A stretch of 15,724 nucleotides of DNA from Gemmatimonadota bacterium (lineage in GTDB: Bacteria; Gemmatimonadota; Gemmatimonadetes; Longimicrobiales; RSA9): assembly GCA_040905425.1 (NCBI GenBank), contig JBBDRO010000109.1:1-15724 (forward strand), read 5' to 3'. Position numbers and translations under genes: made by a program. Each line of letters begins with the position of its first letter. Positions within the stretch are counted from its first letter, which is position 1. Shown piece after piece: positions 1,416 to 15,447 of this stretch. The notes beneath the pieces were generated by a model that made no database searches, had not been told where the DNA came from, and saw only the letters and a program-made list of their open reading frames with translations.

Positions 1416-3284
1416 TCACCAGCCCTTCAACGGCCAGTGCATGGATGCGACCGGCGGCCAGACCAGGTTGGCCTCCTCAAGCCGGGCGGCCAGGTTGGGC
1501 GCGACGTCGAGATCGAACGGCGCGCCGCACATGCAGAAGTAGATGCCGACCATCAGCAGCAGCGGCCCCGCCGGCCGGGCATCGATTTCCGCTGCCACCG
1601 CATTGGCGGCCGCGCGGTCGCCGGTGCGGGCGGCCATCACCACGTCGGCAGCAATCCCCACCGGAAGAGCCGGGTCGGTCGGCCGCCTCCGCAGCGCCTC
1701 GAGGCGCTCCCGATCGCCACGGGCAGCGGCCAGCCAGGCTTCGCCCTTTTGGCGATTGCTGTTGGTCGAGCCGTCCAGCCGCGGCAGGGAGGCGCGAGCC
1801 TCGTCGAGGCGCCCGCCCGCGATCAGGGCCTGGAGCCGGGCTTCCTCCAGCCCGAATCCGGTCACGTTGGCCACCGAGAGCCCTCGCTCGGCAATATCCA
1901 GGGCACGGTCGGCGTCGCCGGTATAGATCGAAGCCATCACCGCATGTAGCCAGTGGGCCTCATCCAGGGCATTGCAGCGCGTGGCGCGCAGGAAGAACTC
2001 ACGCGCCGGTTCAGCCATGCCGAAGGCCAGTCCCGCCACGTGCAGCCACTGGTCGCGGCCGCAGGCCTCCGTGTGCTCGAACGTCCGTCGCGCCAGTTCT
2101 GCGAGGCCGGTCCAGTCGTCCGAAAACATGCGCCGGGTAATCTCGATGAAATCGCGGGCAGCCTCATTGGGCGCGACCCGCCAGGCGTCCCGCAGGCGCC
2201 GCTCGTGCTCGGCGCGGGCGCGCGCCACTTCTCCGGCCGGTAGCGACTCCGGCTCGACGCCGGCGGCCAGGTCGAGCAGGATGTGGCCGTACAGGTCGGA
2301 ACTGTGGAAGCGTGCCACCCAGAGCCTCGGTGCCCGCGCGAACGCCCGGTCGAAGAGGGCGTTGGCCTCCATCAGCGTCGGGATCTGCGGCGCGCCGCCG
2401 TGGGCGAGCTGATAAAGCTCGTAGCCGCGCGCAAAGAGGGCGTAGGCCTCGGGATCACGTACGCCGGCCTCGGCCATCCGCTCGCGCTCGCGTTCGTCGA
2501 GCAGTATGCCGAGGGCGGAGGCCACCTGGCTGGCGATGTCGGTCTGGACCACGAAGGCGTCGTCGACCGGCCGGTCGTAGGCGGCCGACCAGACCTGGAA
2601 TCCATCCCGGGCCCGCACGAGCTGGGCGGTCACGCGCATCATCTCGCCGGAGTGCCGCACGGTGCCCTCGAGCACGTGATCCACGCCGAGGCGCGCGGCA
2701 ATCTCGTCGACCGGTACGTCCTTGTCCTTGTAGAAGAAGGATGACGTACGCGCCGTGACCAGCAGGTTCGGCACCGCGGTCAGCGCGTTGAGGATTTCCT
2801 CGGTCAGTCCGTCGGCGAAGTAGCCCTGCTCCGGGTCGGAGGAGAGGTTGTCGAAGGGCAGCACCGCAATCGACGACCCCACCTCGACGCTGCCCGCGGA
2901 CTCCACCTCGGCAGCCGGTCCGGAGCCGGCGCCTGGATTCAGCAACCACCCGGCGGACAGCCCGATGCCCACCGCAACCAGGAACCCGGCAACCACGAGG
3001 GTACGTTTGCCCAGCGGCGGCGCGCTTCCGCCGGCGTCCCCCCGGGCCGCTGGTGCCGTTCGCCGTATCGAGCCCTCGGGCGTCACCTCCAGCGCCCAGG
3101 CCAGCACGAGCGCCACCGGGAAGCCCAGCATCACCAGCGCGACCACCAGGCTCATGGCCCAGTTCGGCACGCCCATCCGCGGCAGCATGAGGTCCGCCGC
3201 CTCGAGCACCGCGAAGGCGGTGGCACCGTACACCACCGCCACGCGGAAGACCTTCCGGCGCCTTAGTTCCTCGAAGAAGGTCAT
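1416..3284 (-). CDS. Membrane-anchored TolB-N-like/TPR protein with no catalytic output domain
   Basis: N-terminal FFEELRRRKVFRVAVVY...LGFPVALVLAWALEVTPEG membrane module, a third TM (TLVVAGFLVAVGIGLSAGWLL), a TolB-N-like domain (SIAVLPFDNLSSDPEQGYFADGLTEEILNAL...ARTSSFFYK...VLEGTVR), then helical TPR-like repeats. Start taken at ATG 3284 from the family N-terminus; ATG 3308 is an alternative. Confidence 0.85.
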   Translation of the reverse strand: MTFFEELRRRKVFRVAVVYGATAFAVLEAADLMLPRMGVPNWAMSLVVALVMLGFPVALVLAWALEVTPEGSIRRTAPAARGDAGGSAPPLGKRTLVVAGFLVAVGIGLSAGWLLNPGAGSGPAAEVESAGSVEVGSSIAVLPFDNLSSDPEQGYFADGLTEEILNALTAVPNLLVTARTSSFFYKDKDVPVDEIAARLGVDHVLEGTVRHSGEMMRVTAQLVRARDGFQVWSAAYDRPVDDAFVVQTDIASQVASALGILLDERERERMAEAGVRDPEAYALFARGYELYQLAHGGAPQIPTLMEANALFDRAFARAPRLWVARFHSSDLYGHILLDLAAGVEPESLPAGEVARARAEHERRLRDAWRVAPNEAARDFIEITRRMFSDDWTGLAELARRTFEHTEACGRDQWLHVAGLAFGMAEPAREFFLRATRCNALDEAHWLHAVMASIYTGDADRALDIAERGLSVANVTGFGLEEARLQALIAGGRLDEARASLPRLDGSTNSNRQKGEAWLAAARGDRERLEALRRRPTDPALPVGIAADVVMAARTGDRAAANAVAAEIDARPAGPLLLMVGIYFCMCGAPFDLDVAPNLAARLEEANLVWPPVASMHWPLKGW

Positions 3285-3683
3285 GCGTTGCCAACCAGGG
3301 CCGGTCATCGTACTGCCTTAAGCGACCCGGCGCCCCGACCTTCGAGCGCACCAACGATCATCGCGCGCAGTCGCTCCAGGACCGTGGCTCCGTCATGCGG
3401 CGGAGATCCTTTGCGGAGGTGGTGGTCTGGTGAAGGTGTGTCGGGCGAACGGCCCGACATCCCAGAGTACATCAGCCGGCCGGGCCGGGCAATGATGTCC
3501 CCGTCTCTGGCACCGCCCCCCCCACCCCCAACCAAACCGCCCCCTCGCGCGCCTGATAGCGGGGCGTAGCGCCCCCCGTGCCGCCGCCTTGCCTCCTGGC
3601 CCGCCACGGCCAAATTGCACACCAGGCGCGCAGCCGATCCCTCCCGGCCCACGCGCCCGCCGTATCCACCTGGAGAAGACAGC

Positions 3684-6590
3684 ATGCGAACGATGACGTT
3701 CCTCCGCCGCCGCGCGGACCTTGCGACCATGGCGGCGCTCGCCCTGCTCGTGCCCGCCGCCGCCGCGGCGCAGCAGCGCTCCGCCCTGGACGCCACCACC
3801 TTGGCGACCATCGAGGCCCGCTCTCTCGGGCCCGGGCTGGTCACCGGCCGCATCGCGGACATAGCCATCGATCCGCGGGACACCAACGTCTGGTACGTGG
3901 CCACGGCGTTCGGCGGCGTGTGGAAGACGGACAACCGGGGGCTCTCCTTCGAGCCGATCTTCGATGACGGCGGCACCCACAACATGTGCTGCATCGTCAT
4001 CGACCCGGAAGATTCCAACGTCCTCTGGCTGGGCACGGGCGAGAACCACAGTCAGCGCAGCGCCCACTTCGGGGACGGGCTCTACAAGTCCACCGACGCG
4101 GGGGAGAGCTGGCGGCGGGTAGGGCTGGCCAGCTCGGAGCACATCGGCGCCATCCGCATCGACCCGCGTGACTCGGACGTGGTCTACGTGGCGGCGCAGG
4201 GTCCGCTCTTCTCGGCCGGCGGCGACCGCGGCCTCTACCGTACCAGCGACGGCGGCGCCACCTGGGACCGCGTCCTCTTCGTGAGCGACGACACCGGCAT
4301 CACCGACGTGGTGCTGGACCCGCACGACCCGGACGTCCTCTTTGCCGCGGCCTATCCGCGCCGCCGCCACGTGGGCCAGGCCCTCGGCGGCAGCCCCGAG
4401 GGCGGCATCTTCCGGAGCCCGGACGGCGGGCGGAGCTGGGAGAAGCTGGGCAACGGCCTGCCCACCGCCGACTTCGGGCGGGCCGGGCTGGCCATCGACG
4501 GGCGCACCAGCCCCTCGCAGCTGCTCGCGCTCATCCAGGCGGGCCAGGGGCAGTCGGGCATCTACCGCACTCTGGACGGCGGCGATAGCTGGGAGCGCTT
4601 CGGCGTCATGGAGCAGCAGGGCCAGGGGCGCGGCGGCCCGCCGCGCGGCGGCGACCCGGATGACGAGGACGAAGAGGAGGAGGATGCCGACCCGGACTGG
4701 TACGCCGACGGCATCGGTCAGTACTACAGCGAGCTGTTCCTGGATCCGCACCGGCCTGGCCACGTCTACTCCATGGCCGTGCGCCTGGCGCGCAGCACGG
4801 ACGGCGGCGCCACCTGGGGCCGCGCCGGCTGGGAGAGCGCCGGCGTGCACGTGGACCACCACGCCCTGGCCTTCGACCCCGAGGATCCCGACCACATCCT
4901 GCTCGGCAATGACGGCGGGCTCTACGAGACCTACGACGCGGGGGAGAGCTGGCGCTTCTTTGCCAACCTGCCCGTCACACAGTACTACCGCGTGGGCGTG
5001 AACAACGCCACGCCCTTCTACCACGTGTGCGGCGGCACGCAGGACAACTTCTCCATGTGCGGCCCCTCCCGCACCACCAACGGCTGGGGCATCCGCAACA
5101 GTGACTGGTTCATCATCGCGGGCGGCGACGGCTTCCAGGCCCGCGGGGACATGGAGGACCCCAACACCTTCTACGGGGAGTCGCAGAACGGCGGCCTGTC
5201 CCGCTTCGACGCGCGCAGCGGGCGCGGCACCAGCATCCGGCCGCGCATCAACACGGCGCCGGCCGCCTTCGGCCATGCACCCGCCGACTCCACCTGGCGC
5301 GACCGCTTCAACTGGGACACGCCCTTCATCCTGAGCCCGCACCAGTCCAGGCGGCTTTACTTCGCCAGTCAGTTCCTCTACCGCAGTGACGACCGGGGGG
5401 ACAACTGGCAGCGCGTGAGCCCGGACCTCACCCGCCAGCTGGACCCGGACACGCTGCCCATCATGGGCAAGGTCTGGCCGCGCGGCTCGGTGGCGCTGAA
5501 CGTCTCCACCACCGCGCTCAGCAACATCGTTACGCTGGACGAGTCCCCCCTCCTGGAGGGCCTCATCTACGCCGGCACCGATGACGGTCTGCTGCAGGTC
5601 AGCGAGGACGGCGGCGCCAGCTGGCGGCGCATCGACCGCTTCCCCGACGTGCCGCGCTGGAGCTACGTGACGGACGTCTTTGCCTCACCGCGGGACGCCG
5701 GCACCGTCTTCGTGGCGCTGAACAACTGGCAGCGCGGGGACTACGCCCCCTACATCGTCAAGAGCACGGACCGCGGCCGCAGCTGGACCAACATCACCGG
5801 CAACCTGCCCACCAAGCACAACGTGTGGACCGTGGCACAAGACCACGTGAACGCCAACCTGCTCTTCGCGGGCACCGAGTTCGGCCTCTTCTTCTCCCCG
5901 GACGGCGGCGGGCAGTGGACCCAACTGAAGGGCGGCATGCCCATAGCCCAGGTGCGGGACCTCATCCTGCACCGCCGCGAGCATGACGTGGTCATGGCCA
6001 CCTTCGGGCGCGGCTTCTACGTGCTGGATGACTACAGCGCGCTCCGCGCGATCACCCCCGCCACGCTGGCCGAGCCTGCCCGGCTCTTCCCGCTGCGCCA
6101 CGCCTACAGCTACGTCCAGGGCGGCCTGGCCCCCGCGGGCGCGGCCGGCGTGCTGGCCATCTCCGGCAACTACTCTACCGCCAACCCGCCCGTGGGCGCG
6201 TGGATCACCTACCACGTGCGCGACGCCGTGCCCGAGGACGCCCGCCTGGTGCTCACCATCACGGACGGCAGCGGTGAGGCGTTCCGCCGCTGTGAGCTGG
6301 AGGGCCAGCCGGGGCTCCGGCGCTTCGCGTGGAACCTGCTGGGGGACCCCGCGCCCGGGGAGCCGGACGAGGACGATCCCGACGCCGAGGAGGAAAGTGG
6401 CGCGGAGATCACCTCCTGCACCGGCGGTGGTGGCGGCGGCGGTTTCGGCGGCGGCGGCCGCGGCCGGCGCCCCACGCCCCGCGCCGAGCCCGGCGTCTAC
6501 CGCGCCTCGATCGGCTTCCTGTTCGGTGACGAGGTAACGGAGATCGGACCCAGCCAGACGTTCAACGTGCTACCGCTGCCGGAGCGGTAG
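3684..6590 (+). CDS. Secreted BNR/Asp-box (VPS10/sortilin-like) beta-propeller protein, often annotated 'glycosyl hydrolase'
   Basis: GGAGA RBS at 3672-3676 before ATG 3684; signal peptide ([14 protein letters not shown]); many Asp-boxes ([48 protein letters not shown]); family motifs [44 protein letters not shown]. Confidence 0.9.
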
Positions 6591-6611: not shown

Positions 6612-6663
6612 TAAGCGACGATGCCCGGCCGGCTTCTTCCGCTCCGCGGGAAGCCGGCCGGGC
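6612..6663 (+). repeat. 52-bp hairpin element copy 1; probable intrinsic terminator of the BNR/VPS10 gene
   Basis: TAAGCGACGATGCCCGGCCGGCTTCTTCCGCTCCGCGGGAAGCCGGCCGGGC. 14-bp perfect stem GCCCGGCCGGCTTC/GAAGCCGGCCGGGC followed by TCTGTTCGT, starting 21 bp after the stop at 6590. 50/52 identical to 11023-11074. Confidence 0.9.
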
Positions 6664-6683
6664 TCTGTTCGTGGGTGCGTCCG

Positions 6684-6728
6684 TTGCGTCTCCGGCTTCT
6701 GTCCTGTATGATGTATAAAAGCATCATA
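6684..6728 (+). promoter_or_regulatory. Sigma70-type promoter of hipBA with an overlapping palindromic operator
   Basis: TTGCGT (6684-6689), 17-bp spacer, TATGAT (6707-6712). The perfect inverted repeat TATGATG-N8-CATCATA (6707-6728) covers the -10 element and start site. Confidence 0.75.
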
Positions 6729-6747
6729 TCTCCTTTGTGAAGACCAT

Positions 6748-7044
6748 ATGACCGATTTACGCATCGAAAATCGCACCGATGCCGAGATCCTGGCGGAACT
6801 GGGCGAGCGCCTGGCCCGTCTGCGCACCGGTCACGGCCTGACCCAGGAGGAAGCGGCCCGCCAGGCGGGCGTGGCACGCACCACCGTCTCGCGGGCCGAA
6901 CGGGGTGAGAATCCCAACCTCCTCACCGTGGTCCGCCTGCTCCGCGTATACGGGCGCCTGGGCGCGCTGGACAGCTTCATCCCCGAACCGGAGGTGAGCC
7001 CGATGGCGCTCATACGGTCCAGTCGAGGGACGGGCCGTGGCTGA
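6748..7044 (+). CDS. hipB: XRE-family HTH antitoxin (HipB-like)
   Basis: 98 aa with Cro/C1 HTH (LARLRTGHGLTQEEAARQAGVARTTVSRAERGENPNLLTVVRLL); overlaps the GTG start of the downstream HipA gene by 8 bp. Confidence 0.85.
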   Translation: MTDLRIENRTDAEILAELGERLARLRTGHGLTQEEAARQAGVARTTVSRAERGENPNLLTVVRLLRVYGRLGALDSFIPEPEVSPMALIRSSRGTGRG

Positions 7045-8341
7045 GGCGGCGGCGTTCGCGGAGATCCGCCTGTGGGGGCGGACCCTGGGGGGAGTGGCGG
7101 AGCTGGCAGACGGCGGCGTGGTCTTCGAGTACGACCCCGGCTTCCGCCGCTCCGGGCTGGAGCTCTCCCCGCTGCGCCTGCCGCTCTCCCTGCGCGGCCC
7201 GGTGCGCTTCACGGAGCTGCTGCGCCAGGAGGGCTTCCGCGGGCTGCCCGGCGTGCTGGCCGACGCCCTGCCCGACGCCTTCGGCACGAGCGTCATCCGC
7301 GCCTACTATACGGCCCGAGGGCGGTCCGAGAAGGCGTTCTCCCCGGTGCAGCATCTGCTCTACGTGGGCGAGCGCGCCCTTGGCGCACTCACCTTTCACC
7401 CCGCCGAGGAGCTGGAGCCGCGACCGAGGGAGGTGGGGGCCCTGGACGTGGAGGCGCTGGAGGTGGCCGCGCTGGTGGCCGACGCCCGGCGCATCATCGC
7501 CGGCGTGGCGGACGTCACCGTGCCGGAGATCTACCGCATCGGCTCATCCGCGGGTGGCATGCGCCCCAAGGCCATCGTGCTCTTCAACCCCGGCACGGCA
7601 GAAGTGCGCTCCGCCTTCGCGCCGCCCTGCCGCGGTGACATCCCCGCGCTGGTGAAATTCGATGGCGTGGGCAAGCGCACCATCCACCAGGAGCTGGGCC
7701 AGCCGGAGCACTACAATCGCGTTGAGGCCGCCTACGCCCGCATGGCCCGGGACGCGGGGCTGGACGTGGTCCGCATCCACATGCTCGAGAGTCCCGACGG
7801 CCATGCCCACCTCATCATTCCGCGCTTCGACCGGCGGGACGGCGAGCGCCTCCATCAGCACACGCTGGGCGGGCTCCTGCACGTGGACTACAACGATCCC
7901 GGCGCCAGCAGCTACGAGGAGTACCTGCGCACCATCCTCCGCCTGGGGATGCCGCCGGCCGCGGTCATCGAAGGTTACCGGCGCATGGTCTTCAACGTGC
8001 TGGCCGTGAACCAGGATGACCACGTGAAGAACCTCTCCTTCCACATGAGCCCCGACGGCATGTGGTCCCTCACCCCCGCCTACGACCTCACCTTTGCCCG
8101 CGGCGGCGGCTGGACCGCCACGCACCAGATGCGCATTGCCGACAAGCGTGCCGGCATCGCCCGCGGCGATCTGCTGGCCGTGGCCGCCACGTTCGCCATC
8201 CGCAACCCGAACGGCATCATCCAGCGCGTAGCGGACGTGCTGGCGGAGTGGCCGCGCTACGCCCGCGAAACCGGCGTGCCGCGGGAGACCGTGCGTGAGG
8301 TGGAGGTGGCGCTGGAGGAGCGGCGGGAAGAGGTGGGGTAG
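7037..8341 (+). CDS. hipA: HipA-family serine/threonine kinase toxin (type II TA)
   Basis: 434 aa; HipA N-domain (FEYDPGFRRSGLELSPLRLPL...LADALPDAFG), Gly-rich loop GSSAGGMRPKA, LVKFD, catalytic NQDDHVKNLSF and LTPAYDL. Confidence 0.93.
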   Translation: MAEAAAFAEIRLWGRTLGGVAELADGGVVFEYDPGFRRSGLELSPLRLPLSLRGPVRFTELLRQEGFRGLPGVLADALPDAFGTSVIRAYYTARGRSEKAFSPVQHLLYVGERALGALTFHPAEELEPRPREVGALDVEALEVAALVADARRIIAGVADVTVPEIYRIGSSAGGMRPKAIVLFNPGTAEVRSAFAPPCRGDIPALVKFDGVGKRTIHQELGQPEHYNRVEAAYARMARDAGLDVVRIHMLESPDGHAHLIIPRFDRRDGERLHQHTLGGLLHVDYNDPGASSYEEYLRTILRLGMPPAAVIEGYRRMVFNVLAVNQDDHVKNLSFHMSPDGMWSLTPAYDLTFARGGGWTATHQMRIADKRAGIARGDLLAVAATFAIRNPNGIIQRVADVLAEWPRYARETGVPRETVREVEVALEERREEVG

Positions 8342-8386
8342 AGGGCGCGCGGGAGGCCGGACTTCACAGACGGAGCGCCAACAATG

Positions 8387-8812
8387 CTACGCAGGCCTGT
8401 TCCTGAAGAGATCCTCCGCCCATGACGAAAATGCTTCCGTCTCGCGCAAGATCCGCTGACCCTGCTCGAGGGTGTAATAGTTGCCGCTGTAGGAGGCGTG
8501 CGTCTTCGCATCCAGGATCCTTCTCAAGCGCTCGATCTGGTCGGGGTCGGCTCGGTGTCCGAGAGCGTGCATGAGAACTTCGGCTCCCCGCCGATGATCG
8601 CCATCGGTCGACCTGATCTCTCGGTAGGCAGTCGAAAGCGCATCCGTAAACGCGATTGCGGCGTGGATCGCCACGATGGCCAGGCCGTTACCGTACTTCG
8701 CTTCAGCGAGCGTCTCCAAATCATGGGCGGTACGCAGTAGCGCCTGCCCGACGGCGTGGTACTTGGCCGCGGTGCTCCGGTCCTGCCGTTTCGTGGCTCC
8801 AAGCTTCACCAC
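8387..8812 (-). CDS. HEPN-domain protein, partner of the upstream nucleotidyltransferase
   Basis: 141-aa all-helical pattern (AIVAIHAAIAFTDAL...DGDHRRGAEVL...RILDAKTHASYSG...AFSSWAEDL). Its GTG start overlaps the TAG stop of the MNT gene (TAGTG). MNT-HEPN pairing is an established operon type. Confidence 0.72.
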   Translation of the reverse strand: MVKLGATKRQDRSTAAKYHAVGQALLRTAHDLETLAEAKYGNGLAIVAIHAAIAFTDALSTAYREIRSTDGDHRRGAEVLMHALGHRADPDQIERLRRILDAKTHASYSGNYYTLEQGQRILRETEAFSSWAEDLFRNRPA

Positions 8813-9435
8813 TACGACAGCAGATCCTGAAGGGAATTACCGATCAACGTTCGGCCCTCCGTACTGATTGCTTGCATGAGCGGGTCGCCGTCCTGGTACC
8901 GGAACGATGCATCGGCCCTCGAGAGGACATACGGTGACAACCACAGACCCAAGCGGCGGCTCAAGGGAGCTGCAGCCTCTCTGATCCGCTCCTCGACTGC
9001 AGCGGTGGCCTCCTCTCCCCCGGTGAGGACCAGCACGTCCAGATCACTACCCGGCCGCGACTTGCCTGTGGCCGCACTTCCGAAGACCACCACACTCAGG
9101 ATCTCCGGTGCCACGCCGGCGTGGCCCAACGCACGCTCCAATTCGGTCCTGACGACGTCCAGACTCCCCCGCTCCCGTTCAAACAGCCCGGCGAGCGCCT
9201 CGTAGAAATAATGGGCCGTGTTGATCTGGTAGAGGTGAGCCCCGCCCGCTTCGGTTCGTTCCAGGATACGGAGATCGCTCAGTTCGTCCAGGGCGCGCTG
9301 TGCGCCGGCGTTGCTCCGGATTCCACCGAGCCTCTGGGTCTCTCTTCCGCTCGCCGGGGAGTCCAGGGGCAGAAGGGCTCTCAGAATCTGAACCTTGCTG
9401 TCTGAGCCGAGGACATGGTCGAGCAGGTTCAGCAT
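8812..9435 (-). CDS. Winged-HTH + minimal nucleotidyltransferase (MNT, Pol-beta fold) protein
   Basis: Likely start ATG 9435 (207 aa, MLNLLDHVLGSDSKVQILRALL...). N-terminal wHTH (SGRETQRLGG...AQRALDELSDLRILERTEAGGAHLYQIN), then the NTase motif VVVFGSAATGKSRPGSDLDVLVL (GS-x10-DxD). The ORF-track extension to 9969 overlaps the next gene out of frame. Confidence 0.85.
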   Translation of the reverse strand: MLNLLDHVLGSDSKVQILRALLPLDSPASGRETQRLGGIRSNAGAQRALDELSDLRILERTEAGGAHLYQINTAHYFYEALAGLFERERGSLDVVRTELERALGHAGVAPEILSVVVFGSAATGKSRPGSDLDVLVLTGGEEATAAVEERIREAAAPLSRRLGLWLSPYVLSRADASFRYQDGDPLMQAISTEGRTLIGNSLQDLLS

Positions 9436-9488
9436 AGAACTTTGAGAAAGGGGAGCCAATGCCCCATTTATAGGGCGACTGACCCAAT

Positions 9489-10649
9489 TTAGGGGCGGAG
9501 ACGCTGTAAGGCAAGCGCCGCGCGCTCGATGCGGAACACCCGGCCAGCACCGGTCACGAGGTACATCTCGCCGGCGGCGTCGGTGCCGAAGGACGTGACG
9601 TTGCCGGCACCGCGGATCCACTCCAGTCGATCGACGGCCGCGCCGTCGTCCATGCGGAAGGAGCGGATCCAGCCGCCGCAGTAGTCGGCGTAGAAGTAAT
9701 GGCCGCGGAGCTCGGGGATGAGCTGGCCACGGTACACGGCGCCGCCGCTGACGGAGCAGCCGTCGCCATGTGAGTATTCGAGCACCGGCAGGGCCAACCC
9801 GCTCTGGTCGCAGCTCCCGCCGCCATAGCAGTGCCGGCCTTCCATGACGTTCCAGCCGTAGTTCACACCGCCCGAGTCGGCGGGCTCCACGTGGATCTCC
9901 TCCCACTGGTTCTGCCCCACGTCGGCAATGTAGAGCAGGCCGCTCGGCGGATCGAAGTGGAAGCGCCACGGGTTGCGCAGGCCGTACGCCCAGATCTCGG
10001 CGCGCGCGGCCAGGGTGCCCGTGAACGGATTGTCACTCGGTAGCGCGTACGGCTCGCCGGCATCCACATCGATGCGCAGCAGCGCACCCAGCAGCGTGGC
10101 CAGGTTCTGGCCGTGCTCGAGCGGGTCGCCACCCGAGCCGCCGTCGCCCATGCCAATGTAGAGCATGCCGTCCGGTCCGAAGGCCACCTGCCCGCCATTG
10201 TGGTTGCCGAACGGCTGCGCCACCGCCAGCACGAGCGAGGCCGATGCGGCGTCCGCCACGTCGGCGTCGGCCGACACCGTGTAGCGCTCCACGCGCGTGT
10301 CCCCGCTCGTGTCCGTGTAGTTCACATAGAAGCGGCCGTTGGCGGCGTAGTTCGGGTGGAAGGCCACGCTGAGCAGGCCGCGCTCGCCGCCGCTGCCCAC
10401 CTGCGCCGTGATGTCCAGGAACGCGCGCTCGAGCAGCGCGCCGTTGCGGATGATGCGGATGCGACCGGGCTGCTCGACAACGAACAGGCGCGCATCGCCG
10501 GACGGCGCGGCCACGTGCACGGGTGACTGCAACCCCGCCGCCACTTCGACCAGGCGAAGCTCCAGTGATCCAGGAGGCGTGGTGCCGTCATCGGCCGGCG
10601 CCGTTGAATCGGCGCAGGCCAGGGCGAGCAGCAGGGCCAGGAAGCGCAT
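9489..10649 (-). CDS. PQQ-dependent soluble glucose/sorbosone dehydrogenase family lipoprotein
   Basis: Start ATG 10649, MRFLALLLALAC (lipobox); motifs GERGLLSVAFHP, NHNGGQVAFGPDGMLYIGMGDGG, EIWAYGLRNPWRF, ADVGQNQWEEI, NYGW..MEG. Confidence 0.92.
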   Translation of the reverse strand: MRFLALLLALACADSTAPADDGTTPPGSLELRLVEVAAGLQSPVHVAAPSGDARLFVVEQPGRIRIIRNGALLERAFLDITAQVGSGGERGLLSVAFHPNYAANGRFYVNYTDTSGDTRVERYTVSADADVADAASASLVLAVAQPFGNHNGGQVAFGPDGMLYIGMGDGGSGGDPLEHGQNLATLLGALLRIDVDAGEPYALPSDNPFTGTLAARAEIWAYGLRNPWRFHFDPPSGLLYIADVGQNQWEEIHVEPADSGGVNYGWNVMEGRHCYGGGSCDQSGLALPVLEYSHGDGCSVSGGAVYRGQLIPELRGHYFYADYCGGWIRSFRMDDGAAVDRLEWIRGAGNVTSFGTDAAGEMYLVTGAGRVFRIERAALALQRLRP

Positions 10650-10680
10650 GGTTCGGTCCGATGAGTGTGGGAATGTCACA

Positions 10681-10790
10681 CGGCTGCCCGTTGCCGCTTC
10701 GGCTGCCGCGCCCCGCTTCGGCTGCCCGCATGCCGCTTCGGCTGCCCGTGTGCCGCTTCGGCTGCCCGCGTGCCGCTTCGGCTGCCCGCG
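10681..10790. repeat. Tandem array of about 5.5 copies of a 20-bp unit, TGCCGCTTCGGCTGCCCGCG
   Basis: Units start at 10692 (19 bp), 10711, 10731, 10751 and 10771, with a partial unit at 10681. Core CCGCTTCGGCTGCC is invariant in the five full units; variation is limited to the junctions. Confidence 0.95.
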
Positions 10791-10823
10791 CCCCATCAAA
10801 GCCGCACGCGCAGGGGTCCGGCC

Positions 10824-10934
10824 GAACCGTTGCGGCTCTGGTTGCGATTATTCCAATCAAAGCCGCGCGCGCGATCGGCGCAGCCGCGCGTGCGGGTCCT
10901 GTTGGACTATTTGCTACGAATAGCGCAACGGCTC
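10824..10934. repeat. Long degenerate palindrome centred at 10879; outer arms may extend to 10793-10964
   Basis: Manual ungapped pairing of 10824-10873 with 10885-10934 gives 34/50 Watson-Crick pairs plus 3 G-T, including CCGTTGCG/CGCAACGG, TCCAA/TTGGA and an 11-bp inner stem. Outer CCATCAAA/TTTGATGG at 10793-10800 and 10957-10964. Confidence 0.7.
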
Positions 10935-11022
10935 TCAGAACGCGCGCGGTTGCACGTTTGATGGCACATCCGCGCGGCGGACACGTGCGGTTATGCAGAG
11001 GCCGCCCGCGTTGAACCCCCTA

Positions 11023-11074
11023 TAAGCGACGAGGCCCGGCCGGCTTCCTCCGCTCCGCGGGAAGCCGGCCGGGC
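11023..11074 (+). repeat. 52-bp hairpin element copy 2; probable terminator of the S46 peptidase gene
   Basis: TAAGCGACGAGGCCCGGCCGGCTTCCTCCGCTCCGCGGGAAGCCGGCCGGGC. GC-rich perfect stem lying 38 bp beyond the S46 stop; direct repeat of 6612-6663. Confidence 0.9.
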
Positions 11075-11112: not shown

Positions 11113-13389
11113 TCAGTTGCGACCAGCCCTGGTCAGCTCCTCCAGCAGCGCGTCCGCCTGGTAGATGCTGCGGAGCGCCTCCAGGATGCCGGCGGCGTGC
11201 ACGGCAATGGTGCGGCCGCCCGTCTCGGTGCGGAAGACGTACTCGTTGGGGAGCTGCTCGATGTTGCCGTCGAAGGCCAGGCCCACCACGCGCGCGTCCC
11301 GGTCGATGACCGGGCTGCCGCTGTTGCCGCCGGTGATGTCCAGGGTGGCCACGAAGTCCACGGGCTTGCTCATGTCAATGAACTGGCGCCGCTCCTCGAA
11401 GCGCGGCGGCAGGTTCCAGGGCTCCTCCTGCTCGAAGGCGTAGGCGCGCCCGAACATGCCGTGGAAGGTGGTCTTCGGCGCGGCGAAGGTGCCGTTGTAG
11501 GCGTAGCGCGCGGTGACGCCGTCGCTGATGCGGAGGGTGAGCGTGGCGTCGGGAGGCACGTCCGTGCCGTAGGCGGCAAAGAGAGCGCGCCCCATGCGCT
11601 GCTTCTGCACCGTCTCGGCGTCCACGATCTCCGCCCAGCGCGGCAGCAGTTCCTGGTAGCGCGCCTCCATGGCCACGGCGGCGCGGACGCACGGATCGGC
11701 TGATCCCTCGGCGGCCGGCAGGCCGCTACGTAGTAGCTCCTGCCGGAACGCCACGTCCGCCACACGACAGTCGGTGGCCAGGCGCGCGGCGGCTTCGGAC
11801 GGGGTTTCCCCGGCGCGCAGGAGCAGGCCGCGTACCGGGTCGCTTGATAGAAGCCAGCGGTCGGCCATACCCAGGAAGTGGGCGAGCGGCAGGGTCTCCT
11901 GCACACCGCCGAGGGGCGTGGGCTGGCCGAGCAGCGCCTGCACCTGCGCCGGGTCGAAGCCCGCGGTGCGCTCGCCGGCCGGCAGGTCTTGCTCGCGCAG
12001 GTAGCGTACGAGCAGTCCGGCCAGCTGCAGCTGCGGCACGCCCAGGAACTGCGTGTTGGACATGTTGAGCGGCGGGCTGGTGCGCACCTTGGCGCGCTGC
12101 AGCGCCGCCATGCTGTCCCACAGCGTGCCGTACTCCGCGCGCAGCGCCGCGTCCCGGTTGATGCGCTCCCGGAATTCGGCCTCCCAGACCAGCTTGCGCG
12201 CCACCAGCAACGTATCCTCCAGACCCGCCTGCTCGCCGCGATACTTCTTCAGGTTGTTCTCCAGCCCGAAGAGCTGCTCGCGCACCTGCATCTGGAGCTG
12301 CGGATTCTCCTCCGCCAGCGCGTTCAGCAGCTCGACCTGGCCCTCCCAGATCTGGATGTTGAAGGGGTGGCGGTACTGCCCCTCGTACATGAGCTGCGGC
12401 ACGGTGATGAGGCGGGCCGTGGAGCCGGGGTTGCCGGTCAGGAAGATGGGCTCGCCCTCCGCGGCGCCGTCCGGGTCGAAGGGGAAGAAGTGGGGCGTGG
12501 CGGCCGGCACACCGTTCTCATAGGCGCGCACGAAGGCCATGTCCAGCGCCCAGCGCGGGTAGACGAAGTTGTCCGGGTCGCCGCCGAAGAAGCCCGCCTG
12601 CAGCTCGGGCGCGAAGACCAGCTTGACCTCCGTGTAGCGCTTGTAGCCGTAGAGCTGGTACTGGCCGCCCTGATAAAGGGGCACCACCCGGCAGACGTCC
12701 GGCTCGCCGGCCTGGCACTCCGCCACGAGCCGCCCCTGCACCGCCTCCAGCGCCTCGGCCACCTGCGTGGGCGGGGCGTTGGACGGCAGCGCCGCGCGCA
12801 CGCGCTCGGTGACGTCTTGGATGGCCACGAGCTGGTCCAGGTAGAGCTGCGGGCAGGTGAACTCCTCCGCGTTCGTGGCCGCGTAGAAGCCCGTGGCCAC
12901 GTTGTCCTCCCCCGGTCCCGAGGACGCGTTCACGCAGCGCCGGGCGCAGTGGTGGTTGGTCATCACCAGCCCGCCCGGTGACACGAACGAGGCCGAGCAG
13001 AAGCCGCCGAAAAGCACCGAGGAGAGGCGCACGTGCTCCAGCCACTCGGGCGTGGCCTGGAAGTCATAGGTGTCCCGCCAGTACTCGAGCGGCGGATTCT
13101 CAAAGGTCCACATGGTGCCGAGCTCGCGCCCGCTCAGCGTGACGTTCTGGGCGGCCTGGACGGCGGCCCCGGGCGGCTGCAGCGTGACGCCCGGCGCCAG
13201 CTCCTGCGGCCGCTGTGTGAGCTGGAGCGTGGGACCGGAGGGGGTGGCGGCCGCCTCGGCCGTACGGGCCTCCGCCGCCACGGCGCCCGGCTCGCCCGCC
13301 GGCGCTGCTCCGGAGGAAGCGCAGGCGGCGGCGAAGAGGGGCAGGATCAGGAAGAGCAAGGCCGCGGTACGGCGGCGTACAGAAGGCAT
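11113..13389 (-). CDS. S46 family dipeptidyl peptidase (DPP7/DAP BII-like), probable lipoprotein
   Basis: AGGAG RBS before ATG 13389; signal ending FAAAC; catalytic triad motifs CSASFVSPGGLVMTNHHC (His), FGGDPDNFVYPRWALD (Asp), DITGGNSGSPV (Ser); also PDATLTLRISDG and GLAFDGN. Confidence 0.95.
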   Translation of the reverse strand: MPSVRRRTAALLFLILPLFAAACASSGAAPAGEPGAVAAEARTAEAAATPSGPTLQLTQRPQELAPGVTLQPPGAAVQAAQNVTLSGRELGTMWTFENPPLEYWRDTYDFQATPEWLEHVRLSSVLFGGFCSASFVSPGGLVMTNHHCARRCVNASSGPGEDNVATGFYAATNAEEFTCPQLYLDQLVAIQDVTERVRAALPSNAPPTQVAEALEAVQGRLVAECQAGEPDVCRVVPLYQGGQYQLYGYKRYTEVKLVFAPELQAGFFGGDPDNFVYPRWALDMAFVRAYENGVPAATPHFFPFDPDGAAEGEPIFLTGNPGSTARLITVPQLMYEGQYRHPFNIQIWEGQVELLNALAEENPQLQMQVREQLFGLENNLKKYRGEQAGLEDTLLVARKLVWEAEFRERINRDAALRAEYGTLWDSMAALQRAKVRTSPPLNMSNTQFLGVPQLQLAGLLVRYLREQDLPAGERTAGFDPAQVQALLGQPTPLGGVQETLPLAHFLGMADRWLLSSDPVRGLLLRAGETPSEAAARLATDCRVADVAFRQELLRSGLPAAEGSADPCVRAAVAMEARYQELLPRWAEIVDAETVQKQRMGRALFAAYGTDVPPDATLTLRISDGVTARYAYNGTFAAPKTTFHGMFGRAYAFEQEEPWNLPPRFEERRQFIDMSKPVDFVATLDITGGNSGSPVIDRDARVVGLAFDGNIEQLPNEYVFRTETGGRTIAVHAAGILEALRSIYQADALLEELTRAGRN

Positions 13390-13887: not shown

Positions 13888-15447
13888 TTACCCCGCCGAA
13901 ACCCGCCGATGCACCGCGTCCACCGCCTGCCACGCCGACTCGATGGCGCCCTGCAGCCAGGCGGGGCGGGTGCCGGTGCCCGCCGAGCCCAGGTAGAGGC
14001 GGCCGTCCGCCTTGGCGAGCTGCGCACGCACGTCCTCCTCGGGTGAGCGACCATAGGCGCCCAGGCTGTAGGGCACCTTTTCCCACCAGACGGCGTAGGC
14101 CGTGTCGAACTCCTGGCGCATCTGCGGGTGGACCTTGCCGGCCTGCGTGAGCACGTACTCGATGCGCTCGCGGATCGGCTGCTGGTTCAGCTCCGCGGTG
14201 CTCCCGCCGGCGTAGAAGCCCAGCAGGATGCCCTTCTCGGTCAGGTAGTCATTGGAAGGATAGGAGAACTCGCCCAGGCCGAGGCTGCGATTGAAGAGAT
14301 GGCCGCCGAAGATGCCGTCATCCTCCTCCCAGAAGCGACGCTTCATCTGCAGGCCCATCTTGGCGCTGTCGCTGTGGGTGGTGCTGGCCACCGCCTCCGC
14401 CATCTCCGGCGACAGGTCCACGTCGATGGTCTTCAGGACGGCCATGGGCAGGCAACAGATGCAGTACTCGGCGCTGGCCTCACCTTCCTCACCCGTCCGT
14501 ACGTTCCGGTGCGCCACCCGCACCTGGCTATCCGTCTGGCGGATGGAGACCACCTCGGTGCCCAGCACCACGCGGTCCTGCATGGCGTGGTGGAACGCCA
14601 GCGGGATCTGGTTCATCCCACCGACCGGCTGGAAGACGGGATCGGGTCCCCCGGTGTTGGCGTAGAGCGAGCGGACCCGCGCCCCGAAGCCCGCGGTCAA
14701 CAGCGCACCCAGATCGTAGCGCTCCTCGGAGCCGCGGAGTGCGGGCGGTCGGTAGACGTAGTCGGCCGAATCCAGATAGCCGGCCTGCACCAGGAAGGTG
14801 ACCAGCCGCTCCCGGTCCTCCGGGGTGAGAGGCACATCGAGCTGCCCCTGATCCATGGCCTTGGCCAGCAGCTCCGTAATCGAGCCCCAGAGGTCCGCCT
14901 TCGCCTCTCTCAGTTGCACCCGCCGCCCCGCCAACGGACCGCGCTCGGGGTCCTCCTCGTAGAGGAAGTTGGCGTCGGTGGAATTGACGAACAGCTCCAG
15001 CGGCACCCCCAGTTCGGCGCAGTAGTCCAGCACGCCGGTGTCGGCATGCGGAATGCGCCAGGCGCCGGCATTGAAGTACTGCCCCTCATCGAAGTCGCAG
15101 ACCTGGCGCTCCCCACCGATCTCCGTGTGGCTGTCCCCGCGCCGCACCGTCCAGCAGAGCCCGCCCACCGACTCGCGCGCCTCCAGGATCCGGCAGTCGT
15201 AGCCCAGCTTGCCGAGCTCCCAGCCGGCCACCAGACCCGACAGCCCGCCGCCCAGGATGAGCACGCTGGCCTGCCGCTCGCCCCGCTGCCACGCGGGCCT
15301 GGGTTCCCGGGCTGCCCCCATCAGATCCCACGCACCCATCGTCCCCATCACGAGCGACGAGCCGCCCACGAGCCCGAGCCGGTGCAGGAGCTGGCGCCGG
15401 GTCATGAGGGATGGAGGCGTGCTGAACGACGTGGGATAATCGGTCAT
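13888..15447 (-). CDS. Flavin monoamine oxidase / L-amino-acid oxidase family protein
   Basis: FAD-binding VLILGGGLSGLVAGWEL...ILEARESVGG; YFNAGAWRIP; FQPVGGMNQIP; C-terminal AWLQGAIESA; Tat-like TRRQLL N-terminus. Alternative start ATG 15405. Confidence 0.92.
   Translation of the reverse strand: MTDYPTSFSTPPSLMTRRQLLHRLGLVGGSSLVMGTMGAWDLMGAAREPRPAWQRGERQASVLILGGGLSGLVAGWELGKLGYDCRILEARESVGGLCWTVRRGDSHTEIGGERQVCDFDEGQYFNAGAWRIPHADTGVLDYCAELGVPLELFVNSTDANFLYEEDPERGPLAGRRVQLREAKADLWGSITELLAKAMDQGQLDVPLTPEDRERLVTFLVQAGYLDSADYVYRPPALRGSEERYDLGALLTAGFGARVRSLYANTGGPDPVFQPVGGMNQIPLAFHHAMQDRVVLGTEVVSIRQTDSQVRVAHRNVRTGEEGEASAEYCICCLPMAVLKTIDVDLSPEMAEAVASTTHSDSAKMGLQMKRRFWEEDDGIFGGHLFNRSLGLGEFSYPSNDYLTEKGILLGFYAGGSTAELNQQPIRERIEYVLTQAGKVHPQMRQEFDTAYAVWWEKVPYSLGAYGRSPEEDVRAQLAKADGRLYLGSAGTGTRPAWLQGAIESAWQAVDAVHRRVSAG

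Follow-up and report, generated by a model that had tools for sequence, protein, structure and literature searches.

A stretch of 15,724 nucleotides from a sediment Gemmatimonadota bacterium (GCA_040905425.1, contig JBBDRO010000109.1), referred to here as the window, contains two 52-bp hairpin elements that enclose genes of the toxin-antitoxin type. The window is contig C109 of the assembly (G000; 4.12 Mb, 96.7% complete), across which gene positions were obtained with a purpose-made hexamer gene caller. The two elements are located in the same orientation at 6612-6663 and 11023-11074 (+ strand), 4411 bp apart, and are identical at 50 of 52 positions. Copy 1 begins 21 nt past the stop (6590) of a BNR/VPS10 gene (3693-6590, + strand), while copy 2 ends 38 nt before the stop (11113) of a peptidase S46 gene (11113-13359, - strand). 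This arrangement had been described in the initial annotation and was confirmed. The annotation had also taken the elements for the attL/attR-like ends of a discrete 4.4-kb cassette; as a whole it was partly supported, and its cassette part was mostly unsupported. We consider it possible, if somewhat short of probable, that the two elements are duplicated hairpins built on a lineage-specific motif, likely a polar recombination signal, and lie within a wider plastic zone.

The genes next to copy 1 encode a HipB-like HTH antitoxin (6748-7044, + strand; Pfam HTH_3/HTH_31, with couple_hipB below its cut-off) and a HipA-family toxin identified by Pfam (7037-8341, + strand). They are followed by the tail remnant of a motif copy (8342-8360, - strand), which is intact in the relative described below and was cut in the window by the next gene pair. 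This pair consists of a 141-aa protein (8387-8812, - strand) and an HTH-MNT nucleotidyltransferase (8812-9435, - strand; Pfam, below the MntA cut-off). The structure model of the 141-aa protein (pLDDT 92.5) has a predicted HEPN-type fold, which best matched HEPN domains (top TM 0.69, E 0.023, none under E 0.001), and the protein gave no Pfam HEPN match. A glucose/sorbosone (PQQ-type) dehydrogenase (9489-10649, - strand; Pfam GSDH), a 20-bp tandem array of 5.6 copies (10681-10790, + strand), which is longer in the relative, and a member of a dispersed repeat family of about 200 bp (10776-10996, strand unassigned) complete the interval. The cargo given in the initial annotation was therefore recovered for the HTH/HipA, MNT, dehydrogenase and array components, the HEPN component by predicted fold only, whereas its "long palindrome", the 200-bp repeat, folded weakly (z -2.05, 7 of 200 shuffles as good). 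The annotation had reported no recombinase in the cargo, and no match to recombinase families was found among the nine window proteins scanned.

The hipBA pair is 74-76% identical to pairs in genomes G017 and G039, and no 52-mer match was found at those loci. The 200-bp repeat has 14 other matches in G000 on six contigs (C65, C50, C103, C20, C18 and C70) and four copies in contigs L037/L038 of the relative, and it often abuts 20-bp tandem arrays. On C65, two direct copies of it (14197-14353 and 16434-16590) enclose three small accessory genes which, judged by eye, resemble a toxin-antitoxin pair and an AbiEi/DUF559-type gene.

Each 52-mer forms an 18-pair stem with a 2-nt bulge and a 3-nt loop. 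Folding was strong compared with shuffled sequences (z -3.7 and -5.8 for the two copies; none of 200 shuffles equalled either), so the hairpin of the initial annotation stood, while its terminator-like character did not, as no hairpin-plus-U-tract site was found on either strand between 6500 and 11200. In the 4.12-Mb assembly the full 52-mer has two copies only, and contig C55 ends in a partial match of 37 nt, but its 5' half is a dispersed motif found at ordinary gene ends. The 52-mer had no match in plasmids, phages or viral contigs and none in Rfam. In species genomes, 18 scattered single matches to a degenerate pattern of 28 letters were found, and a 16-letter pattern matched eight viral contigs with one to three core matches each and no clear tail. 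Seven 52-mer copies are known, two in the window and five in the relative, all in one orientation and one region, and no compensatory pairs were found among them. Nearly every base of the 52-mer is constrained: the first 28 bases or so are the motif (core AAGCGACG[AT]) and the rest is a partial inverted arm. Because of this constraint, the 50/52 identity and the sharp edges would require neither a recent nor a site-specific event. Likewise, the shared 5' flank alone does not prove a common origin, because TAAGCGACG occurs 256 times genome-wide. The common origin proposed for the two copies is nevertheless supported; local motif-rooted duplication recurs, and five same-orientation copies are present in the relative.

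The 256 copies of TAAGCGACG, against 9.7 expected, make it the most over-represented 9-mer of G000. The core AAGCGACG[AT] was found at 486 sites and is followed by a weak pyrimidine-rich tail to about position 28. The extended word TAAGCGACG[AT] has 231 copies in G000; none of 72 family genomes had more than 16, and none of 400 other class genomes (a set including the unpublished G422, used for that count only) more than 20. The three contigs of the relative carry five core sites in 25 kb versus two in 783 kb of family and order loci, a density biased upward since these contigs were found via the motif.

Of the TAAGCGACG sites, 161/256 are outside genes, and 222/486 core sites are in coding DNA. 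A minority of motif sites form hairpins with an inverted copy. The motif supplies 46 of the 222 TAA stops in G000; genes ending in a motif TAA include ftsA-like and fumarase-like ones, named by eye. Within genes, rare codons are forced by the motif: GTA is used in 25 of 50 Val-AGC-GAC-G contexts versus 3.9% genome-wide, and GCT in 27 of 30 GTC-Ala-TAC contexts versus 3.2%. Four of four alignments of in-gene sites with orthologs were gap-free. The rare synonymous codons and gap-free alignments indicate that the motif is a DNA-level site built by point changes and not an inserted element, and an insertion footprint was rejected on the same alignments. A promoter or RNA signal was also rejected, since in-gene copies take either orientation (113 vs 109) and divergent spacers contain the motif less often than convergent ones. 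In-gene density was 3.1 per 100 kb in the least native-looking tenth of genes, compared with 4.9-7.4 elsewhere. Positions 10 and 12 of the motif are coupled (0.51 bits), A10 occurring with G12 and T10 with C12 in the same register, which defines two sub-variants. At C111:19513-19552, C30:43232, C32:20028 and C98:14063, two motif copies overlap head to head as a 16-bp palindrome; at C111, full tails extend to both sides between convergent genes.

The spacing of the motif was strand-specific. Neighbouring sites more than 200 bp apart were in opposite orientation in 234 cases and in the same orientation in 120, while a context-preserving shuffle gave 177±9 opposite neighbours (maximum 205 in 2000 shuffles). 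From 0.2 to 6 kb, same-orientation pairs occurred at 0.09, 0.29, 0.57, 0.55 and 0.60 of expectation and were normal beyond; opposite-orientation pairs were near expectation. The same-orientation share was 0.26, compared with a minimum of 0.39 among 1082 similarly abundant control 9-mers, and these controls led us to reject generic slippage between any abundant 9-mer. Per-strand spacing was even (variance/mean 0.60-0.84), and strand balance per contig was tighter than chance (chi2 23.4 on 50 df).

One known type of dispersed word with comparable anatomy is the DNA uptake tag, such as the DNA uptake sequence (DUS) and the uptake signal sequence (USS). The G000 motif could be such a tag with an added polar step, such as entry or cleavage on one side of the site, the 52-mers then being tagged gene-end hairpins that also anchor homologous swapping of accessory genes in the manner of Neisseria minimal mobile elements; we regard this as rather unlikely. 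It would account for the strict core with its long weak tail, the intergenic majority of sites, the forcing of rare codons, the absence of strand skew and the lower motif density in the least native-looking genes. ComEC and DprA families are present in G000, and the lineage-specific word resembles the DUS dialects described in excerpts of PMC3630211. As a control we used one genome, G731, with 1065 copies of the USS word, of which 732 kb of 2.0 Mb was analyzed. Abutting inverted pairs showed a 10.8-fold excess in G000 and a 10.1-fold excess in this control. However, repulsion between USS copies was orientation-blind and acted under 1 kb (200 same, 196 opposite), with no same-strand bias, and motif density was 0.12 per kb in G000 vs 0.64 in the control. 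Sequence orientation does not affect DNA uptake in Haemophilus influenzae according to excerpts of PMC1939737, while the spacing of the G000 motif depends on it. The motif has USS-like anatomy but direction-dependent behaviour. In three relatives, each represented by 120-160 kb, no 9-mer stood out clearly as a comparable dialect word, which also speaks against an uptake tag. A backwards control word was enriched in genus g29 (158 copies in G032, 79 in G034 and 54 in G028), with only two matches in the 160 kb of G032 examined, which may point to another repeat family in g29.

Local direct duplication is associated with motif sites. Of 391 local same-orientation pairs in G000, 9 (at seven loci) had long shared blocks with the motif at their root, versus 9 of 171,657 distant pairs; among 530 local opposite pairs there was one. 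Of the 77 local direct repeats listed, 10 were motif-bearing blocks, as were about one third of those in non-coding DNA; this share far exceeds the motif share of non-coding DNA. The shared block starts 0-1 nt from the motif at C109, C80 and C98, and elsewhere 8 to >300 nt upstream. Each duplicated locus has its own hairpin sequence, and no common crossover point was observed. At C98:2003-11391, direct copies of another motif-hairpin bound a segment that encloses a Gp49/HTH toxin-antitoxin-like pair. At C80:118-13750, direct copies of another motif-hairpin form a triple that encloses ordinary accessory genes, and no toxin-antitoxin match was found among the eight enclosed genes scanned.

These duplications bear on a further explanation, in which the motif binds an oriented chromosome-organising or translocating protein and the 52-bp pair is only a constrained 3'-end hairpin left over from old ordinary tandem duplications in an accessory-gene region, motif and duplication being mechanistically unlinked. 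The even per-strand spacing and the per-contig balance would suit such a site. In several cases the duplicated block reaches 55 to >300 nt beyond the motif on its upstream side, and a leader of about 18 nt upstream of copy 2 resembles the leaders of three copies on contig L036 of the relative, a homology implying that the duplicated unit was longer than 52 bp. We nevertheless consider this explanation unlikely, because motif blocks are over-represented among local direct repeats to the degree given above, and because it would be unusual for a protein of this kind to be restricted to a single genus in a set of 401 genomes.

The window was compared with the relative, represented by metagenome contigs L036, L037 and L038, which are 91-93% identical and may not be one organism. 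Hairpin copy 1 was found in L037 (52/52) and copy 2 in L038 (51/52), beside the same genes and with copy-specific bases kept. The hairpins are thus conserved in place at 103 of 104 bases, compared with 62-83% in non-coding flanks (68/84, 13/21, 28/38 and 50/60 for the adjacent flanks). L037 is arranged as BNR, copy 1, hipBA, two other genes, dehydrogenase and array, and L038 as copy 2, S46, MNT, AAA ATPase and another long repeat. The relative has other genes in place of window 8361-9521, and its MNT gene is upstream of S46, outside both hairpins. Because both junctions are kept while the inside differs, the 4.4 kb probably does not move as a unit. On L036, three more same-orientation copies, 3.4 and 1.6 kb apart, separate HicB-like, TnpB, IS1595-fragment, MNT, BrnA, DUF2283 and RHH genes. 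The TnpB/Cas12f-like gene there (L036:4030-5547), located between two hairpin copies, encodes a 505-aa nuclease with a TNB domain, below all NCBIfam cut-offs, and adjoins an IS1595 N-terminal fragment; G000 gave no TNB match. The last codons of the dehydrogenase in the window (9489-9521) derive from sequence found upstream of MNT in the relative, which suggests that a deletion joined the dehydrogenase and MNT modules.

The S46 gene is directly followed by the M20 dipeptidase gene in 11 of 12 relatives' loci, which were chosen because both genes matched on one contig. Among further loci the two were adjacent in 5 of 11; two were at a contig end and four had no dipeptidase match, three of these four being second S46 copies with another copy adjacent in the same genome. 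In the window the dipeptidase gene (2-1321, - strand), the usual downstream neighbour of S46, is separated from it and marks the real left edge (about 1322) of the inserted or plastic zone. From the adjacency in relatives, the plastic zone therefore spans positions 1322 (approximately) to 11110 and takes in the BNR gene, which is inside the wider block that splits the relatives' S46-dipeptidase pair. A gene at 1416-3284 (- strand) is also located there, with a one-mismatch variant of the motif core, read directly, just upstream (3319-3327, + strand). The 4.4-kb interval is probably part of this wider plastic zone and not a site-specific cassette, and the region looks like an ordinary accessory-gene zone.

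No empty site or BNR-S46 adjacency was found among the matches listed for 40 family genomes with both genes, in which 11 BNR candidates were scored per genome, and in none of the pairs listed did the two genes come nearer to each other than 340 kb on the same contig. Likewise, neither an empty-site nor a circle joint was present among the joints listed for sequencing runs X1-X4 (15 of 96 in one listing); these runs belong to one study, X1 may be the source, and they were represented by contigs, which drop rare variants. A contig of run X1 crosses copy 2 unbroken. Many dispersed copies at ordinary gene ends lacking an empty-site allele, and flanking genes never adjacent in relatives, were the outcomes that the initial annotation had named as speaking against a cassette, and both are largely what was observed. 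At L112:6400-7200 (genome G074), one of the two closest BNR orthologs is likewise followed by a convergent small gene, PIN-toxin-like by eye, with no 52-mer match. Contig depth at window 6654-9998 was 45 in run X1, versus 35-38 on either side, and 16.6 in run X2, versus about 14; as depth is not copy number, this could reflect an extra hipBA-HEPN/MNT copy in part of the population, or noise.

In the initial annotation the hairpin was an attachment site for a trans-acting recombinase or HUH/RAYT-type enzyme, and the excisable cassettes were held by toxin-antitoxin addiction. The seven copies in one orientation and one region, the three L036 copies separating small accessory genes, the blocks starting 0-1 nt from the motif at three loci and the Gp49/HTH pair enclosed at C98 all agree with this proposal, and deletion between sites would fit the depletion of close direct pairs. 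We find it very unlikely nonetheless. In addition to the fixed junctions with a reshuffled interior and the missing empty site, the hairpin sequence differs at each locus, the C80 triple has no toxin-antitoxin match, the X1 contig is unbroken at copy 2, and core genes would not have acquired a cassette site through synonymous changes. In the 96.7% complete assembly there were no PF01797 (RAYT/Y1 transposase) matches and no IS110 or serine recombinase/resolvase match, and integron integrase scores (TIGR02249: 108.8, 149.7 and 29.1) were below the cut-off of 265. The only tyrosine recombinases of G000 are XerC-like, XerD and one phage integrase. The last is in an integrative element at C94:10369-18214, between perfect 59-bp direct repeats of its own, which represents the conventional island of G000. 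A link to a conjugative origin or to TnpB was rejected, as VirD4-type and TnpB domains were absent from the assembly.

Returning to the polar recombination signal, an enzyme that tracks along DNA, such as a helicase-nuclease of the AddAB type working on broken or incoming linear molecules, may read the motif in one direction only. Sites would then be required on each strand separately, one every several kb, and little would be gained from a further same-orientation site less than about 6 kb away. Motif copies after gene ends might often acquire a partial copy in inverted orientation, and almost all bases of the resulting hairpin would be under constraint. Recombining ends that bear the motif may sometimes pair with a nearby same-orientation copy, which would produce local direct duplications and deletions, and such mis-pairing would also remove close direct pairs. 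Toxin-antitoxin pairs caught between direct copies would resist deletion and so accumulate. The need on each strand, the range of about 6 kb and the lack of a replication link together suggest a one-way signal for stopping or loading an enzyme that processes DNA ends at two-ended breaks or on incoming linear DNA. Two AddAB-like sets were found in G000 (C97:10282-16436; C81:62191-65598 and 84436-87543).

Several observations weigh against this interpretation. AddA-like genes are present in motif-less relatives (9 of 72 family genomes for the C97 type and 48 of 72 for the other); a genus-specific AddAB was therefore rejected, and the motif has no enzyme tied to it. Of the 12 distinct breakpoints counted between G000 and the relative, only 3 have a motif within 30 nt, and the relative itself may be composite. 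Strong hairpins follow 52 of 256 intergenic sites, only slightly more often than 98 of 600 control stops, and the match with the USS control in abutting inverted pairs favours an uptake tag. Leading-strand bias was absent on a crude codon-skew proxy (70/76 and 71/54). Chi motifs are polarized on the leading strand and defined by same-strand runs, and those listed are 5-8 nt long (excerpts of PMC8022716), whereas the G000 sites alternate and are unpolarized, the opposite of that Chi test, and have a 28-bp consensus.

It is also rather doubtful, though conceivable, that the motif represents an undescribed class of genome-wide polar recombination tags, distinct from Chi in lacking replication polarity and from DUS/USS in depending on orientation, with a one-way processing range of about 6 kb on each strand, whose hairpins serve as integrase-free junctions building same-orientation toxin-antitoxin arrays. 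In searches that left most subscription papers outside, we found no prior report of DNA uptake words or over-represented motifs in Gemmatimonadota, nor of same-strand USS spacing or of REP-type (repetitive extragenic palindromic) repeats bounding toxin-antitoxin cassettes. The same-versus-opposite pair statistic, checked against one real USS genome, separates polar from orientation-blind tags, and the question raised for the bench is whether reading of the motif by an AddAB pair, or by the uptake machinery, is unidirectional. On its own, the cassette of the initial annotation would be of no importance.

Among known systems, integron attC sites and CALIN (clusters of attC sites lacking an integrase) form bulged hairpins that share one orientation and lie close to stop codons; they have RYYYAAC/GTTRRRY ends, and their cargo includes toxin-antitoxin genes. 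The 52-mer differs in having no RYYYAAC/GTTRRRY boxes in its alignment, multi-gene segments in two orientations, no integrase above cut-off and no Rfam match. REP elements are GC-rich imperfect hairpins located in intergenic regions after stops. Unlike REP/RAYT systems (RAYT, REP-associated tyrosine transposase), G000 has no Y1 enzyme, the conserved part is a linear motif with 222 of 486 sites in coding DNA, and the hairpins vary by locus. The minimal mobile elements of Neisseria are accessory genes swapped between conserved genes by homologous recombination (excerpts of PMC2784325), and the plastic S46-dipeptidase region resembles them in holding varying accessory genes; however, it is punctuated by repeated same-orientation hairpins.

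In the excerpts of PMC1939737, PMC3630211 and PMC8022716 used here, sequence-specific uptake tags are confined to two bacterial families, and sites of the Chi type are reported for few species. The motif shares with DUS/USS a non-palindromic strict core, equal use of both strands, permissive coding frames, an intergenic excess, inverted pairs after genes and a lineage-specific word (excerpts of PMC3630211 and 10.1101/2025.10.24.684340). It differs in its strand-specific spacing to 6 kb, compared with an orientation-blind range of <1 kb in the USS control, and in a density five times lower; per-strand spacing data of the same two sources, represented here by excerpts, could bear on this difference. 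Like Chi, the motif is an orientation-dependent dispersed signal in a genome with AddA-like genes, and its core starts with the same four bases as part of the Bacillus subtilis and Staphylococcus aureus motifs in excerpts of PMC8022716; it differs further in being about 90-fold over-represented and in having hairpin pairs. By the tests made, the motif is not a member of the DUS/USS, Chi, REP/RAYT or integron systems, and it works most like the first two.

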